From positions 96,001 to 160,000 of the IMG/VR virus record IMGVR_UViG_3300039183_000005: 64,000 nt of DNA; one strand, given 5' to 3'. This stretch comes from a virus. Below the pieces are notes generated by a model, which made no database searches, was not told where the DNA came from, and saw nothing but the letters and a program-made list of their open reading frames with translations. The first letter of the stretch is position 1, and each line of letters begins with the position of its first letter. Positions 5,681 to 48,520 of this stretch are shown here, piece after piece. The translations under genes were made by a program, and so were the position numbers.

Positions 5681-6632
5681 TAGCTATCTCCACGGATTTA
5701 CCAGTGATCACTTGGTCTCCACAGTCAAAACCAGCGTACCGATCCTCAACATACTCACTTCCCAATGTGTGTAAATCACTCCATATTCTATCGCATATAC
5801 CATTATTATTAAAGCCACACATCCGACAAGTCCATTTTCGATTACGTCTTACCAAAGTGTCTTTTTTTATTGTTGTAAAAAAACGATGGAGAGCAGCTAT
5901 AGTCATAGCTATATCTTCCTGGGACAAAGCAATTGTTATTGGGCCACCATCGTTAGTATAGTAGAAGGTAATAAGAATGTTTTTATATTTAGGGTATAGG
6001 AAATATGCTGCTAAATGATATAATCTTGATTGAACTTCTCTCATTAACAATACTTCGTCCATTGGTTTTTGAGTATAAAAATCCTTTCGGTTTCCTGTCT
6101 TCCAATCAACAATTTCAATAGTTTCTTCGTCAAGCTCATGAACAAGGTCGATAAAACCACGAACAGCAAATTGATGTGGCTTACCATCTTTATCTTGGCA
6201 TAGCCATTCTTCTCCTGGCAGTTCTATTGCGAACCAACGCTCTATATCAATAATACCGTTGAGGTTATATGGATTATAAAATGGATCATCTAATACAGTT
6301 TCTAACGCAATCCTACACTTTTTGAAATCAGCAGCTTCTTTATATTCACCAGTATTTTTATCAATTCGAGTAGTCACGCGACGAATAATAACTTCTGGCG
6401 ATTTGGCCGTCAGTTCATCCCATGCACGATTCAATAACCACATTGGATCAACATTTGTTTTACCACGTTTGCGAAGCCTAGCCATCCACTCTAGTGTTTG
6501 GTGAACAATTTTACCCTGCAAGGCCGCTTTTCCGGTACCTGATTCTATTCCCAATATATATTGAAGAAAATAGGAAAACGGACAATGGTTATATAATTTA
6601 ATTGCACTTGCACTACATTTAACCACTCTCAT
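5673..6632 (-). CDS. PD-(D/E)XK exonuclease (RecB/AddB/Cas4-like, 4-Cys)
   Basis: SASAI..CPF, GKIVH, RGFIDLV, IVDWKTG, QxxxY, CxxC...C. Confidence 0.85.
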   Translation of the reverse strand: MRVVKCSASAIKLYNHCPFSYFLQYILGIESGTGKAALQGKIVHQTLEWMARLRKRGKTNVDPMWLLNRAWDELTAKSPEVIIRRVTTRIDKNTGEYKEAADFKKCRIALETVLDDPFYNPYNLNGIIDIERWFAIELPGEEWLCQDKDGKPHQFAVRGFIDLVHELDEETIEIVDWKTGNRKDFYTQKPMDEVLLMREVQSRLYHLAAYFLYPKYKNILITFYYTNDGGPITIALSQEDIAMTIAALHRFFTTIKKDTLVRRNRKWTCRMCGFNNNGICDRIWSDLHTLGSEYVEDRYAGFDCGDQVITGKSVEIANG

Positions 6633-6636
6633 TATG

Positions 6637-7326
6637 TCAATCCCCGGAAGTTTGTTCTTGTCTCATTCTTTTCAGCTCATAATTTATATCTATATTAGAT
6701 AGTTTATTATGTGATGCTTGTTTCCATTCCTCAATTCTTGGAGTCACATCATCTAAATCTGTTCTTCCAATGATAGTAAAATGTAGAATACATGCCGCAT
6801 TAAAAAAGATTGCACTAAGATGGTCTTCGTCTGTCATATCGTTCATAACAGCAAATATATGTCTCATCAAACTAGCATGAAAAACGCTTAATGGCATTCC
6901 CTTGGACCAATTCCATGGGTCATATTTTTTGGCACCACCACCATAATGATTGGCAAGACGTAAATATGTCTTTGGTGAAATTAAATGTAAACCACCGTAT
7001 GAATTATCTGGTATTTTCAAAAAACGATCTGTTTCCTGGTTTCTGATAGCTTCTAGGACAATCCATATCAGTTCTAATAAAAGATCGTTATTGACTGTTT
7101 CTCCCCATGATAATCCTAAATTCCACATGATTAATTTCAAATCATTACTAATAGATTCTGGTAAATCTCTAATCATCTTTTTGCGCGGATAAAAATCAAT
7201 TACTTTACGAATCACTGTCATTGGTATCAGATCAAATCGTGGTTTATCGTGATCAACATCCCTTTTGGCTCCGGTATCAAAATCACGTCTTTCACCAGAG
7301 TCCTTAATATCAAATCGATTCGACAT
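6637..7326 (-). CDS. dATP/dGTP diphosphohydrolase (DUF5664-like) with internal insertion
   Basis: TGAKRD...KPRFDLIP, GAKKY..WNWSKG, SLMRH, EDHL..FN; start moved to ATG 7326. Confidence 0.75.
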   Translation of the reverse strand: MSNRFDIKDSGERRDFDTGAKRDVDHDKPRFDLIPMTVIRKVIDFYPRKKMIRDLPESISNDLKLIMWNLGLSWGETVNNDLLLELIWIVLEAIRNQETDRFLKIPDNSYGGLHLISPKTYLRLANHYGGGAKKYDPWNWSKGMPLSVFHASLMRHIFAVMNDMTDEDHLSAIFFNAACILHFTIIGRTDLDDVTPRIEEWKQASHNKLSNIDINYELKRMRQEQTSGD

Positions 7327-42479: not shown

Positions 42480-43241
42480 TTATTTTCCTTGTTTTTTATC
42501 TCGTTCCATACATGAAAAACAGTCCATTCCTAAATCCAGTTGTTCTGCCCTCCATTTCCAGACGTGTTTTCTTGCGTCGTAGTAGTCAATTTCGCCGAAG
42601 TGTTTCCACGGGAAATATCCCATAGGGCACAATGTTATCATACCTGTTTCTATTACCATCAATTGCCCTGTTTCTTTGCAACACCCACAGCAAACTTCGA
42701 ATTCACGACTTGATAGGTGATTATCCCATGCTCTTCCAAGCGGCAATAGCTTATTATCTGGAATATTTACTCCATAAATCAATTTAGCTTTTGGACTGTG
42801 TTCGCGATATAGTCGTTGTGCTCGTTTGCTGAATTTCTGGTGCCATTTATCATCGGATATTGCCACAAGAACTTCGTCGCAGATTTCACAAACAGAATCT
42901 ATTGATAATAGGAACTTATTCGTAGCCATTTTGTCGTAGGCCCATTGACCGTTTGTAACTATAGATGCTTTATGTCTACCAGATGTCAGAGCTATGAGAA
43001 TTTCTGGATAGTCTGGAAGTATCGTGAACTCTCCACCCATTATGTTTATTCTTATGTTTTTCGGCAACCATGTGTTTAATAATTCGCAGTCTCGGATAGA
43101 TAACTGACCTATACATTCAGGGCCAGACCTGAAACAACAATGAGAACACCGTTCGTTACACTGGTTTGTCACCCTAGCCACAAATTCATTGGTCCATGAA
43201 TTATTGCTCCACTTACTAAACCAGTGATTATACTTTGGCAT
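42480..43241 (-). CDS. Radical SAM protein with SPASM/twitch-like C-terminus
   Basis: CNERCSHC, MGGE, TNG, S.D.WH, GRA, C...G...CP. Confidence 0.88.
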   Translation of the reverse strand: MPKYNHWFSKWSNNSWTNEFVARVTNQCNERCSHCCFRSGPECIGQLSIRDCELLNTWLPKNIRINIMGGEFTILPDYPEILIALTSGRHKASIVTNGQWAYDKMATNKFLLSIDSVCEICDEVLVAISDDKWHQKFSKRAQRLYREHSPKAKLIYGVNIPDNKLLPLGRAWDNHLSSREFEVCCGCCKETGQLMVIETGMITLCPMGYFPWKHFGEIDYYDARKHVWKWRAEQLDLGMDCFSCMERDKKQGK

Positions 43242-44010
43242 GAATTTTTTCTCTCGACAACCTGATAGATTGATCATGCTCCATGCATGAGCAGCAAGTC
43301 ATCCCTCTTGTAAGTTGTTCTGATCGCCAATTTAATACATATTCCTTAGCTTCATACCATGAAGTCTCTGTGAAATGTTTCCACGGAAAATAACCAAACG
43401 GACACTTACACACCATTCCGTCTTCTGATATGAACATATTACCCATTGTGTTACATCTTGCCCATTTTTGTGGATCGGGGACAATATTATTATCCCACGC
43501 TCTTCCAACCGGAACAATCTCCGATACAGGAAGATTACCAGGATCAACTAATGTGACTTTTGGACAATTATTCTGCATAATTTCAAATGCTTTTGGCCAC
43601 GTATGTTTGTGCCATTTGTCCGTTGATATAGCGACATCAACTTCTTTACATATTTCTGTAAGAGAGTTAATGGTTTTTATGAAATTTTTTCTGATTGTGA
43701 ATATGCGAAACCATTGTCCATTTGTAACAATGCGGATATGATTTCTGTTTTTTGCCAGTACGTAAAGAATTTCTGGATAATTATGCAATATAGTTATTTC
43801 ACCACCCATTATATTCGGACTAACATCATGCGGTATCTATCTATTAATATCGATACAATCATTAGTAGATATGTGGCCAACACATTTTGGGCCAGACCGG
43901 AAAGCACAGTGAATACACTTTTGATTGCATCTGTTTGTAACTCTTACTACACAGGCATTTATTGTTGTATTTGTTGTCCATATTTTTGGATATTTTTTAT
44001 TGCTACTCAT
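43228..44010 (-). pseudogene. Radical SAM paralog with an in-frame TAG (43837-43839) at a position that is Trp in its neighbour
   Basis: Manual translation from ATG 44010: ...VRVTNRCNQKCIHCAFRSGPKCVG...INR*IPHDVSPNIMGGE; paralog reads LNTWLP. Confidence 0.8.
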
Positions 44011-45256: not shown

Positions 45257-46144
45257 TTATAGATTTTCTTCAGCCCAAGCAACCACCATATTCGACCATT
45301 TTTGGATTGGTTTGTTTATCGCAACAATATCATTTCGATTTTCACCAAAAGCATCTTCAGAAAACCATCTTTTTTCTATTGGATCATAAAAATACCACAA
45401 GGCATCATTATATTCAAAAAATGCAGCATAGCCGTTATCATCCCAATGGCAATCAAAGTCTAATTCTTCCACCCGATTAAGTTCATCCTGTTGCCGAGCC
45501 AACTGTTCGTACTTTTTATTCCACCATAGCGGGTCATCATCAGGTTTGTCGTCTTGTACCAGACAGGAACGAGTAATTCCACCTTCTTTTCCTGTCATGC
45601 AGAATTTCTCAATCTGTACTTTATCTTTATATTCATTATTCCAGGCTTCAATGTTTGAACCATTAAATGGAACATTCCAATCTACTGCAATTTTTAGTTC
45701 TTTTACCACTCCCGGTCCAACGTTAATCTTCAATCTACAGTAGATTTCTCCACCTCTTGCAATGATGAACATTATGGCCCAATATGGATGGGAAAACGCT
45801 TTTCGGAAATTTTCTTCATCGGTTCCGCTAGGTTGAGGACAATTTCCTGGATGGGAATGTAGTAAAATATTTTGACATGTCCAGGGCGGCATTCCAATAT
45901 CCATCATTCGTTCTGCGTAATCCGCCATATCTTCTGAGTCAAAATCGAATGAAGCTCCAGTACATTTTTGTTTTATCAAAATGAAATCTGTAACTAAAAG
46001 TGGGTCTTCAGTTCCGGTTACTCCATAACCAGCTACTTCAGTTGGCCCTTTATCTCTCATATAAATTAATTTTGCAAAACTGTATGGAGTAAATCGCAAT
46101 GTATCTCCAAAAGTCATTTTTGGCGTCGTGAATTTTTTACTCAT
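45257..46144 (-). CDS. JAB/MPN (Mov34) metallopeptidase
   Basis: TEVAG (Glu) and HSHPGNCPQPSGTD = JAMM HxH-x7-S-x2-D; ATGA-coupled to the E2-like gene with AGGAG SD. Confidence 0.9.
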   Translation of the reverse strand: MSKKFTTPKMTFGDTLRFTPYSFAKLIYMRDKGPTEVAGYGVTGTEDPLLVTDFILIKQKCTGASFDFDSEDMADYAERMMDIGMPPWTCQNILLHSHPGNCPQPSGTDEENFRKAFSHPYWAIMFIIARGGEIYCRLKINVGPGVVKELKIAVDWNVPFNGSNIEAWNNEYKDKVQIEKFCMTGKEGGITRSCLVQDDKPDDDPLWWNKKYEQLARQQDELNRVEELDFDCHWDDNGYAAFFEYNDALWYFYDPIEKRWFSEDAFGENRNDIVAINKPIQKWSNMVVAWAEENL

Positions 46145-47391
46145 ACTCCTATTCCTTCTAATAGACAACCATGTTCTTCAAGACAGGATGAACACATTGG
46201 AACTCCACAGTGTTCACATGTTGTTTGACAATCTTCGCAAATACTCTTTTGACAACTATGACATTCATCAAGACACTCTTTGCAGCAATTCTCTTCACAA
46301 AGACCGCATGTAATCATACATTTTTCACATATAGGTTTATTGCAACAAGAACACGCCGATATACATGGATTGCAGAAATATTCCTGACAAATAGTGCATT
46401 GGCTTAGACACGACGAACAGTAATTTTTTTCGCATTCGGTACACATACTTGCACAGTTGTTGCAAAGTGCCTCTCCGCATTCATTACATTGTGTACCACA
46501 TTCACTACACATCCATTGGTCACACACACAACACGCATCACCATTTTCTGCACAATTTTCACAGTAGTTACAGTCACACATTGCACAATAGTACCCACAT
46601 TCATCTGGACACCATTCCCTACAATTTTCACAACAGAACTCCCCTTCGTGGTCTGGTTCATACCATTTTTCTAATTTGTCATACGGTGAATCATCATTAT
46701 ATGTTCGTAGAATAGATTCTACAACTCTAAAACAATCTTCGAGTCTACCCTGGCATATGGCATTTGTTATAGCTTCTTCTCCTTTCCCTTGACATAAAGA
46801 TTCATCTCCAATGTGTGGATGATAATATCCTCCTAATGATTGTATTTCATTTACTGACTCTATAGTTATGTTATACGGATTCGTTAGATCAATGTGTACC
46901 CAAAAGTGCCCAAGGTCTACTTCTTCATTTTCATCTTCGAGCACAACATCCTCGATAAGTACCGATAGTTTGTTGTCGCGAAATTTAACATTTTTCCAGG
47001 CGTTGCTAATTATTCTAATTTCTTCTGTTATTTCTTTTAGCGACAATGGTGTTACTAGACCTTTTTCTGTCATGATTTTAATTATTGCCATTGCTTGGCG
47101 TGTCATTTCTATAACACTATCTCCAATGTTTGGAATCATGGTTGTCGCAATATTTTCGTATACACTTGGATTTACAATTCCCAGATGTCGGACTGATGGT
47201 TCCCATTCATTAACTTGGACACGCGGACTTGTTCCAGCAATAAATCTATCGTACCATCGTTTTATTTCTTCCAATTTGATAGCAGCATTTGTTATTGCAT
47301 TACTTGCGCTCATATTGAGATTAACAGATTGTTGTTCCACCATCCATTTGTGATATTTGATAGCAGCTCTGCGTATTAGTTTTTCATTCAC
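46141..47391 (-). CDS. E2/UBC-like protein with C-terminal tandem CxxC array
   Basis: YHPHIGDESLCQG (cf. UBC HPN...IC) and SILRTYNDDSPY (cf. SLL.xPN..SP); about 20 CxxC pairs at the C-terminus. Confidence 0.72.
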   Translation of the reverse strand: MNEKLIRRAAIKYHKWMVEQQSVNLNMSASNAITNAAIKLEEIKRWYDRFIAGTSPRVQVNEWEPSVRHLGIVNPSVYENIATTMIPNIGDSVIEMTRQAMAIIKIMTEKGLVTPLSLKEITEEIRIISNAWKNVKFRDNKLSVLIEDVVLEDENEEVDLGHFWVHIDLTNPYNITIESVNEIQSLGGYYHPHIGDESLCQGKGEEAITNAICQGRLEDCFRVVESILRTYNDDSPYDKLEKWYEPDHEGEFCCENCREWCPDECGYYCAMCDCNYCENCAENGDACCVCDQWMCSECGTQCNECGEALCNNCASMCTECEKNYCSSCLSQCTICQEYFCNPCISACSCCNKPICEKCMITCGLCEENCCKECLDECHSCQKSICEDCQTTCEHCGVPMCSSCLEEHGCLLEGIGV

Positions 47392-47572: not shown

Positions 47573-47767
47573 TTATTCATCTGATCTTGCTAGACATTCA
47601 GCCAGTCCTCCGACATAATCTTCTAGGTGAAGTAACACTTCACTATATCCAAATGCGTGACCTTTTTCCCAAGCCATATACGATAGCCAGCCACGAAATT
47701 TTTTGGGAATTCGATTTAGAAGTTCGGTTTGCTTGGCCTCGAACTCTTCTTCAGTTATTCTGCTCAT
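47573..47767 (-). CDS. Hypothetical protein
   Basis: AWEKGHAFGYSEV small phage protein. Confidence 0.55.
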   Translation of the reverse strand: MSRITEEEFEAKQTELLNRIPKKFRGWLSYMAWEKGHAFGYSEVLLHLEDYVGGLAECLARSDE

Positions 47768-47803
47768 TGTGTTTGCCTATAATTTGATACGTGATTATTA
47801 ACC

Positions 47804-47837
47804 AAAAGGGGGTGGGGGAACGTATCTCCCCCACCCC
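47804..47837 (-). terminator. Rho-independent terminator downstream of the Ubl gene
   Basis: Minus strand GGGGTGGGGGAGA-TACG-TTCCCCCACCCC-CTTTT. Confidence 0.8.
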
Positions 47838-47872
47838 GTGTGGTATTAATACCGATGACCTTACACCATCTA

Positions 47873-48349
47873 TTACGAACGCTTCGTCAGCTTACTCCGA
47901 ACCAACTCGGCATCTTCTTTACTAAGACCGCTAAGCAACTTGGAAACAGTCTTCGGAAGCTTATCCCTAGACATTTGTACTCTCTTTAATTTATATGCGA
48001 GAGTAAGTACATTTGGATCGGTATCGGCGGCAAGTCGCTCAGCGATAGTTACATTATCAGTGCTCATTTTGGTCCTCAGAGAAGCTATCTGCTCCTCATT
48101 TGTTCCTGGACCTTTACCCGCGTCGCCCTCGATCTTTTTCGGCGCCAGACTTACCCTGTCACCGTCTTGAAGGACATAATCCAGATGAGCTTCGACAGTC
48201 ATGCCATTTGCACGAACTCGGATTGTGAAATCATCCAAATCGCGACCGAAAGAAACCTCAAGAAATTTTTCCAACGTCGTTCCATTGACAACGGGAATCT
48301 TGCGCGGAATACCAGAACCGTCATTTGTTACCAACATTACCTCGATCAT
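47873..48349 (-). CDS. Ubiquitin-like (beta-grasp, MoaD/ThiS-like) protein, 75-aa domain ending KIEG plus an 83-aa C-terminal extension
   Basis: I.V.LV.N.G.G....IPV..GTTL..F...IRV...YVLQDGDRVSLAPKKIEG. Confidence 0.8.
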   Translation of the reverse strand: MIEVMLVTNDGSGIPRKIPVVNGTTLEKFLEVSFGRDLDDFTIRVRANGMTVEAHLDYVLQDGDRVSLAPKKIEGDAGKGPGTNEEQIASLRTKMSTDNVTIAERLAADTDPNVLTLAYKLKRVQMSRDKLPKTVSKLLSGLSKEDAELVRSKLTKRS

Positions 48350-48520
48350 AATTTTTCTCCAGAAAGAGGGGCAATACCCCTAGACTCTACACAACCAAAA
48401 TAAAGAACAAAACATTACTCTTAAGCATATAATTGCGAACTGTTTCACATATTAGTCGTCCTCCGTTATATCATAGTAATTCATTAATTGTTTAGTACCG
48501 TCTCGAATATCTTTCAACAA

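Follow-up and report, generated by a model that had tools for sequence, protein, structure and literature searches.

A phage ubiquitin-like protein fused in frame to a basic helical passenger as a predicted pro-protein

Type I Bub operons are found in bacteria and encode a ubiquitin-like protein (Ubl) as the N-terminal part of a longer chain, whose remaining part is the system's own E2. In these operons the JAB is fused to the E1, and the JAB domain of the resulting BubCD protein cuts the BubAB Ubl-E2 pre-protein after Gly229, yielding a Ubl whose glycine is free and a second, functional protein (PMC11601596). The fusion of Ubl to E2 is universal in this type. Bil operons, which serve in bacterial anti-phage defence, contain genes for a Ubl, an E2, a JAB and an E1. 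Here the JAB protein BilC removes the single residue that follows Gly97 of BilA, and it is also able to cut a BilA-GFP fusion, while the E1, BilD, is a large protein in which an inactive and an active adenylation domain stand in tandem, accompanied by a mobile CYS domain (10.1101/2023.09.26.559546). A third precedent comes from eukaryotes. In the Ub-eL40 and Ub-eS31 fusions ubiquitin (Ub) stands N-terminal to a small basic protein that also exists independently, and cleavage past the terminal Gly of a Gly-Gly junction by a cysteine DUB yields equal amounts of both products. In yeast, the Ub part has been reported to help productive expression of its passenger (PMC6721733, PMC8122580).

A cluster of related gene content was analysed in a window of 64,000 nucleotides, which is the whole stretch of DNA considered here. 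It covers bases 96001-160000 of a virus record that measures 168,332 bp and has a completeness rating of 100%. The cluster lies on one strand (minus) and encodes a 158-aa Ubl fusion, a 64-aa ORF, an E2-like protein, a JAB and an E1 (Table 1). The cluster was also found in related viral contigs, and the order Ubl, E2-like, JAB, E1 is common to ten viral contigs and several assemblies. Both the JAB gene and the ThiF-type E1 gene are syntenic with the Ubl gene in every locus. When the cluster was compared with deposited phage genomes by blastn no match was obtained, and tblastn with the E1 returned distant ThiF genes alone (<32% identity), in crAss-like and Flavobacterium phages. PADLOC matched only generic JAB models and the E1 part of E1-E2 fusion models (2.7e-15 for the E1). 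Elsewhere in the window, at 42480-43809 (-), two adjoining paralogous radical-SAM-like ORFs of 265 aa and 193 aa overlap by ~50 bases; the upstream member of this pair is without its N-terminal half, and the arrangement may represent a duplication or a split gene.

Table 1. Features of the Ubl cluster, with coordinates in the window.
Feature	Position	Strand	Basis
Ubl::passenger fusion ORF, 158 aa	47873..48349 (incl. stop codon)	-	Nine independent fused homologues, P0001-P0008 and P0027
Beta-grasp Ubl domain, residues 1-75, ending K-I-E-G75	48125..48349	-	AF2 model, VIA matches, invariant Gly75
Gly75 codon, proposed cleavage point that would become the C-terminus of the mature Ubl	48125..48127	-	Invariant column
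Linker DAG and basic five-helix passenger (tail), residues 76-158	47876..48124	-	AF2; free-standing gene in L002, L007, L011
G-rich 12-bp hairpin and T-run, intrinsic-terminator-like, closing the Ubl unit	47800..47837	-	Equivalent in 11/11 related loci
64-aa ORF between hairpin and E2-like gene	47573..47767	-	ORF listing
E2-like protein, 416 aa, C-terminal CxxC array	46141..47391	-	Invariant HPH191-193 and C200 in alignment
JAB/JAMM metallopeptidase, 303 aa, candidate processing enzyme	45257..46168	-	Prok-JAB 4.1e-5; invariant JAMM residues; complex model
ThiF-type E1 adenylating enzyme, 217 aa	44571..45224	-	PF00899 1.4e-26

The cluster shares with Type I Bub a Ubl that forms the N-terminal part of a longer chain and a conserved Gly at the junction. 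By analogy, the JAB/JAMM enzyme of the phage cluster is proposed to free a Ubl with a free glycine and a second protein. The two systems differ in several respects. The phage passenger comes from an unrelated family of small, basic, helical proteins and has no E2 motif or domain, and the E2-like protein, JAB and E1 are separate genes, with JAB and E1 occurring as separate ORFs in all loci. Moreover, the phage fusion is facultative, being fused, split or absent among close relatives, and it is carried by a 168-kb phage rather than by a bacterial operon. A Pfam scan of ten neighbouring ORFs gave no match to DUF6527, the family of the serine protease BubE that belongs to Type I Bub. With Bil the cluster shares the gene set and the presence of residues beyond the Ubl Gly, but an 83-aa tail takes the place of the one extra residue of BilA, and Bil is a defence against phages whereas the present cluster is carried by one. 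The E1 also differs from BilD in having a single ThiF domain. Its one ThiF match covers residues 17-202 of 217 aa and therefore leaves no space for a second adenylation domain; the GxGxxGR motif, D135 and C172 are invariant among its homologues. The cluster resembles Bil pre-processing and, more closely, the BubAB pre-protein, and is a member of neither.

In the E2-like protein, the HPH...C motif is typical of E2 enzymes and is invariant in the alignment, and the CxxC array gave weak matches to PHD/RING/FYVE-like profiles (E about 3e-3). At its C-terminus (46141-46640, -) the number of CxxC repeats varies among homologues through insertion and deletion of whole units. The 64-aa ORF that precedes the E2-like gene has an 80% identical copy in one other locus only (L004) and a weak match to phrog_10980 (E 4e-4).

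The Ubl gene starts at an ATG preceded 8 nt upstream by GGAG. Modelling with AF2 and a family alignment gave a beta-grasp fold for residues 1-72, in the order beta-beta-alpha-beta-beta-beta. VIA searches with this domain returned MoaD, SAMP1, SUMO and ubiquitin as the best matches (Z 9.5-7.3, rmsd about 2 A, 64-71 residues). Among these a MoaD homologue ranked first (Z 9.5, rmsd 1.8 A over 68 residues), and SAMP1, SUMO and ubiquitin scored Z about 8. Foldseek agreed, with SUMO, MoaD and Caldiarchaeum ubiquitin among its matches. The Pfam family ThiS (PF02597) scored 16.1 bits (E 0.017), below its cut-off of 22.5. When the structures are aligned, the C-terminal ends of MoaD and ubiquitin coincide with model residues up to 72-75. 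The original prediction, made from the sequence of the window, was that the beta-grasp domain ends at Gly75, and this was confirmed. It was likewise confirmed that the frame continues past the Gly75 codon for 83 residues (DAGKGPGTNEEQ...KLTKRS).

Comparison of homologues supports the view that this junction is a processing site. The Gly75 column is invariant in 13/13 database homologues, and the Gly is also present in L004, L005, L007, L009, L011, L013, L021 and P0027. What follows it is variable. Eight of the 13 database homologues carry the same tail, four end 1-3 residues past the Gly, and one (P0009) has a different passenger. It had been predicted that the Gly would be fixed while the tail varied, and this is the pattern found in the alignment. 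Overall, the Gly is followed by a short extension (1-10 residues), by the 83-aa tail or by another passenger of 67 aa, and the unfused forms end in G-A, G-E, G-S, G-P, G-AV, G-AN, G-AVVL or G-SDTVTIQAMH. No homologue (0) ends at the Gly itself. Since every homologue has at least one residue beyond the Gly, all of them need C-terminal trimming before adenylation by the E1. It had also been suggested that the tail could act as a safety cap. This was found to be insufficient as an explanation, because one residue past the Gly, which every homologue has, already blocks adenylation and an 83-aa domain is not needed for that purpose.

Taken as a whole, the findings are best explained if the chain is a pro-protein that is cut after Gly75, a reading to which we assign a probability of about 0.75 on the basis of sequence comparison and structural models. 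The segment that contains Gly75 (residues 73-79) joins two independent domains and has pLDDT <50 in AF2, and the linker between Ubl and tail is thus predicted to be disordered. An alternative is that the fusion stays uncut and functions with both domains joined, as BAG1 and parkin do, the beta-grasp part being a docking module for the helical domain. Non-conjugatable N-terminal Ubl domains are found in many proteins, and a BAG1 chain was among the fold matches, through its Ubl part only. An uncut function would nevertheless be at odds with the predicted disorder of the linker and with the invariance, in fused forms, of a Gly at the point where unfused forms end. Moreover, a single Ubl of this family was found in the 168,332-bp genome, so that without cutting the E1 and E2-like protein would have no substrate with a free glycine, although genes for an E1, an E2-like protein and a JAB are all present. 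The intact two-domain protein is for these reasons, and for one given below, regarded as very unlikely.

The tail was claimed in the original prediction to be basic and probably helical. Its pI was calculated as 9.75, compared with 4.93 for residues 1-75, and when modelled alone with AF2 it forms five helices at pLDDT 90.5; in the model of the whole 158-aa chain these helices span residues 84 to 156. A profile search of 1.84 billion representatives revealed 61 relatives of the tail. Almost all of them are stand-alone proteins of 57-130 aa; among the 61 representatives only P0005 and P0027 are Ubl fusions. No meaningful match to the tail emerged from sequence-profile comparisons with Pfam, PHROGs and the PDB. 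Fold searches with the tail model also gave no match (best E 5.4 for Foldseek against the PDB, best Z 4.5 for VIA in its wide search, and TM at most 0.43 against the ESM Atlas), which does not prove that the fold is new.

Distant relatives of the tail have an extra basic N-terminus. Their neighbours are serine recombinases and a TIR gene in some cases, and genes for Imm70 and a transposase on a bacterial contig of 603 kb in another; a further setting is among the early genes, in the replication region, of another phage. Neither an E1 nor a JAB was found near distant relatives in the contexts examined, which indicates that the family as a whole has no general link to ubiquitination. Judged from these relatives, the tail belongs to a family of mostly free-standing mobile-element proteins. 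As to its function, our guess is that the passenger may bind nucleic acid or a host factor and be dispensable for conjugation. Two of the distant forms were noted separately. In L018 (373-2985) a free-standing relative shares a small island with genes for a serine recombinase and a TIR protein of ThsB type and with a 92-aa ORF that resembles a zinc ribbon, and P0038 adjoins a resolvase.

Further genomic comparison revealed that the tail is its own gene in three related loci. In L002 (6692-6943), L007 and L011 it is located 3' of the Ubl gene in another frame, and an AGGAG is visible upstream of the free tail gene in L007 and L011. The free tails of these three loci start with MKKGPGT, MKGPGT and MARGPGT, and the fused forms show the equivalent [KR]GPGT after a linker of 1-3 residues (DAG, EAG, ET, AM, AT, AAG or A). 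The 158-aa gene is best explained as a natural fusion, in frame, of neighbouring genes that share one transcription unit in related phages.

It could be argued that the fusion is a functionless accident, caused by recent loss of a stop codon or by an assembly or sequencing error that joined two neighbours. The split state is indeed the commoner one in the tail family, and a small deletion would suffice to produce the fusion. However, the nine fused sequences derive from separate samples (JGI, ENA, Logan). Far from being near-identical copies of one assembly, they have tail parts with 33-77% identity to that of the window, open frames and linkers of 1-3 residues, and both domains are conserved. 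The architecture also recurs with another passenger. In L021 (1587-2015) the same Ubl is fused in frame, past the invariant Gly, to a different 67-aa acidic protein (pI 4.05), and a hairpin with a T-run and then the E2-like gene follow 3' of this fusion. An accident is therefore considered extremely improbable.

A maximum-likelihood tree of the tail domain was built from 35 rows and 86 columns, in which many forks were unresolved. Fused and free forms interleave on this tree, with 6 changes between the two states on the best tree, and the well-supported branches alone force at least 4 such changes. Repeated interchange of this kind would follow naturally from cleavage of the fusion, since fused and split genes would then give identical products and be equivalent in function. 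Among close relatives it fits poorly with an obligatory two-domain function, which is the further argument against the intact protein discussed above.

The tail can also be missing. No tail gene was found in those relatives that are without a neighbouring one (G001-G004), in a search for which the window's own genome served as a positive control (7e-38), and two near-complete relatives keep the full enzyme cluster while the tail gene is absent. Absence of the tail where the cluster is kept argues that it is accessory cargo, outside the core pathway. The link between tail and Ubl may then be one of co-expression only. In L002, an additional 74-aa acidic ORF (6451-6675) was observed between the Ubl and free tail genes, upstream of the hairpin; by its position it resembles yet another type of cargo, the third for this slot.

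The JAB of the cluster keeps its catalytic JAMM motif, with E44, H104-x-H106, S114 and D117 invariant in 10/10 homologues. A complex of JAB(1-185), Ubl(1-88) and Zn was predicted with an ipSAE of 0.88, against 0.53 for the best of 3 controls; JAB and Ubl are a textbook pair with solved relatives, and this pass may reflect likeness to those structures. In calibration, this mark was reached by 58/80 solved complexes and by 2/110 mismatched pairs. Contacts agree between runs to at least 91%, and the partner pLDDT is at least 85. In the model, JAB residues 44, 104, 106 and 114-117 touch Ubl residues 67-79, a strand that spans Gly75 and four residues beyond it. The predicted complex supports binding of the Ubl by the JAB, and we infer from the model that the JAB would be the protease that cuts it.

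Alternatively, another protease of host or phage origin could cut past Gly75 and the JAB could merely strip the Ubl from its targets. Peptidase roles are known to be split or combined differently in Type I Bub and Bil (PMC11601596; 10.1101/2023.09.26.559546), which leaves some room for such a division of labour. This is nevertheless thought to be very unlikely, as the model places Ubl residues 67-79, across the scissile bond, on the JAMM catalytic residues, the JAB gene accompanies the Ubl gene throughout the loci, and both of the characterised bacterial precedents pre-process with the JAB of their own operon. The last ~80 residues of the JAB (45257-45500, -) contain a conserved pattern, DC.WD..G...W....WY.YDP...W..ED, that has no family match; this region may be a docking domain.

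A strong terminator had also been predicted behind the Ubl gene, in the form of a 12-bp GC hairpin followed by a T-run. The hairpin was confirmed at 47837-47809, with 12 pairs of which 9 are G-C and a 5-nt loop, followed by CTTTTGGTT. It lies 35 nt past the stop codon and has a dG of -25. The 81-nt stretch that contains it folds at -34.1 kcal/mol (z = -3.2 versus shuffles). The hairpin is no chance feature. On neither strand of the 64 kb does a second hairpin combine a T-run with a stem of 8 or more pairs, 6 or more of them G-C, and the next best candidate has a dG of only -12.2. A G-rich hairpin closes the Ubl unit, with or without a passenger, in 11/11 loci, L021 included, and in 10/10 loci it was measured at 13-46 nt past the stop codon. 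In split loci it was found 3' of the tail gene and not of the Ubl gene. Read across these loci, the conserved unit is Ubl plus cargo, then hairpin.

As in operons that use Rho-independent terminators for differential expression, a G+C-rich stem-loop, with a short T-run in the window, stands right after the first, presumably most needed, gene product of the cluster. The phage element remains putative in this comparison, and two relatives (L003 and L015) differ from such terminators in being without a T-run. The hairpin might instead stabilise the RNA 3' end, mark a site of RNA processing or act as a recognition element for protein or DNA, in which case it need not set the ratio of Ubl to enzymes. 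Consistent with such roles, the T-run of the window is itself short (CTTTTGG; CTTTTGGTT has 4 consecutive T and 6/9 T overall), and the G-runs of the hairpin (GGGGTGGGGG) are partly conserved in sequence as well as in pairing. These roles are nonetheless judged rather unlikely. A T-run directly follows the stem in 9/11 loci, the window included, the stem sequences differ among loci while pairing is kept, and the position is always just past a stop codon and ahead of the next gene. If the element is a terminator, the cell probably produces more Ubl and passenger than downstream enzymes, as had been proposed for the Ubl.

A second structured element was noticed on the other side of the gene. Directly ahead of the Ubl ribosome-binding site, at 48357-48380 (-), the window contains a short GC hairpin (GGGGTATTGCCCC) and a T-rich stretch. 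By eye, similarly placed upstream hairpins with different stems occur in L002, L003, L004, L005, L009, L011 and L021. The Ubl unit may thus be bracketed by structured RNA on both sides.

From these data the following mechanism is proposed. The precursor would be translated as one chain, and the JAMM peptidase of the cluster would bind the beta-grasp domain and cut the Gly75-Asp76 bond in the flexible linker. This would release an 8.3-kDa Ubl with a free C-terminal glycine, which could be adenylated by the ThiF-type E1. An equal amount of a 9.1-kDa basic protein would be freed, with the N-terminus DAGKGPGT..., which closely matches the free-standing forms M[KR]1-2GPGT.... Past the Ubl unit, the hairpin and T-run would end or attenuate transcription.

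The closest functional analogy to such a scheme would be the eukaryotic ubiquitin-ribosomal protein fusion. This comparison had been drawn in the original prediction, and it fits in that the tail is an independent gene in related phages. In both cases the modifier is N-terminal to a small basic protein that also exists independently, and cleavage past the terminal Gly with equal amounts of both products is proposed for the phage by analogy. The phage passenger, however, is no ribosomal protein and no known fold matches it. One Gly stands at the junction in place of Gly-Gly, and cleavage would fall to a JAMM enzyme, not to a cysteine DUB. The phage fusion architecture arose independently of the eukaryotic one.

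To our knowledge, ubiquitin-fusion genes have so far been treated as a eukaryotic feature, and the only characterised prokaryotic pre-protein of this kind that we know of, BubAB, joins a Ubl to its own E2. The present case is a virus of prokaryotes that joins its Ubl to an unrelated cargo protein. A broader reading, which we put forward tentatively and with more doubt than confidence, is that the stretch from the Gly to the terminator is a general cargo slot for varied small proteins, separate or fused, and that the Ubl doubles as a cleavable expression and solubility module. It would cover the basic five-helix family, the acidic 67-aa protein and the 74-aa ORF. If this is true, the locus would represent an independent viral invention of the ubiquitin-fusion gene architecture, and cleavage by the JAB would serve as a timed switch, arming the modifier at the moment when an effector is set free. 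Close relatives in which the cargo is split off, fused, swapped or missing form a natural series on how fusions arise and are tolerated. The case also offers a simple and cheap test for pre-processing by a JAB in a phage-encoded conjugation pathway, and it draws attention to an uncharacterised family of small basic mobile-element proteins. Finally, the putative dedicated terminator suggests that these phages tune the ratio of Ubl to enzymes.
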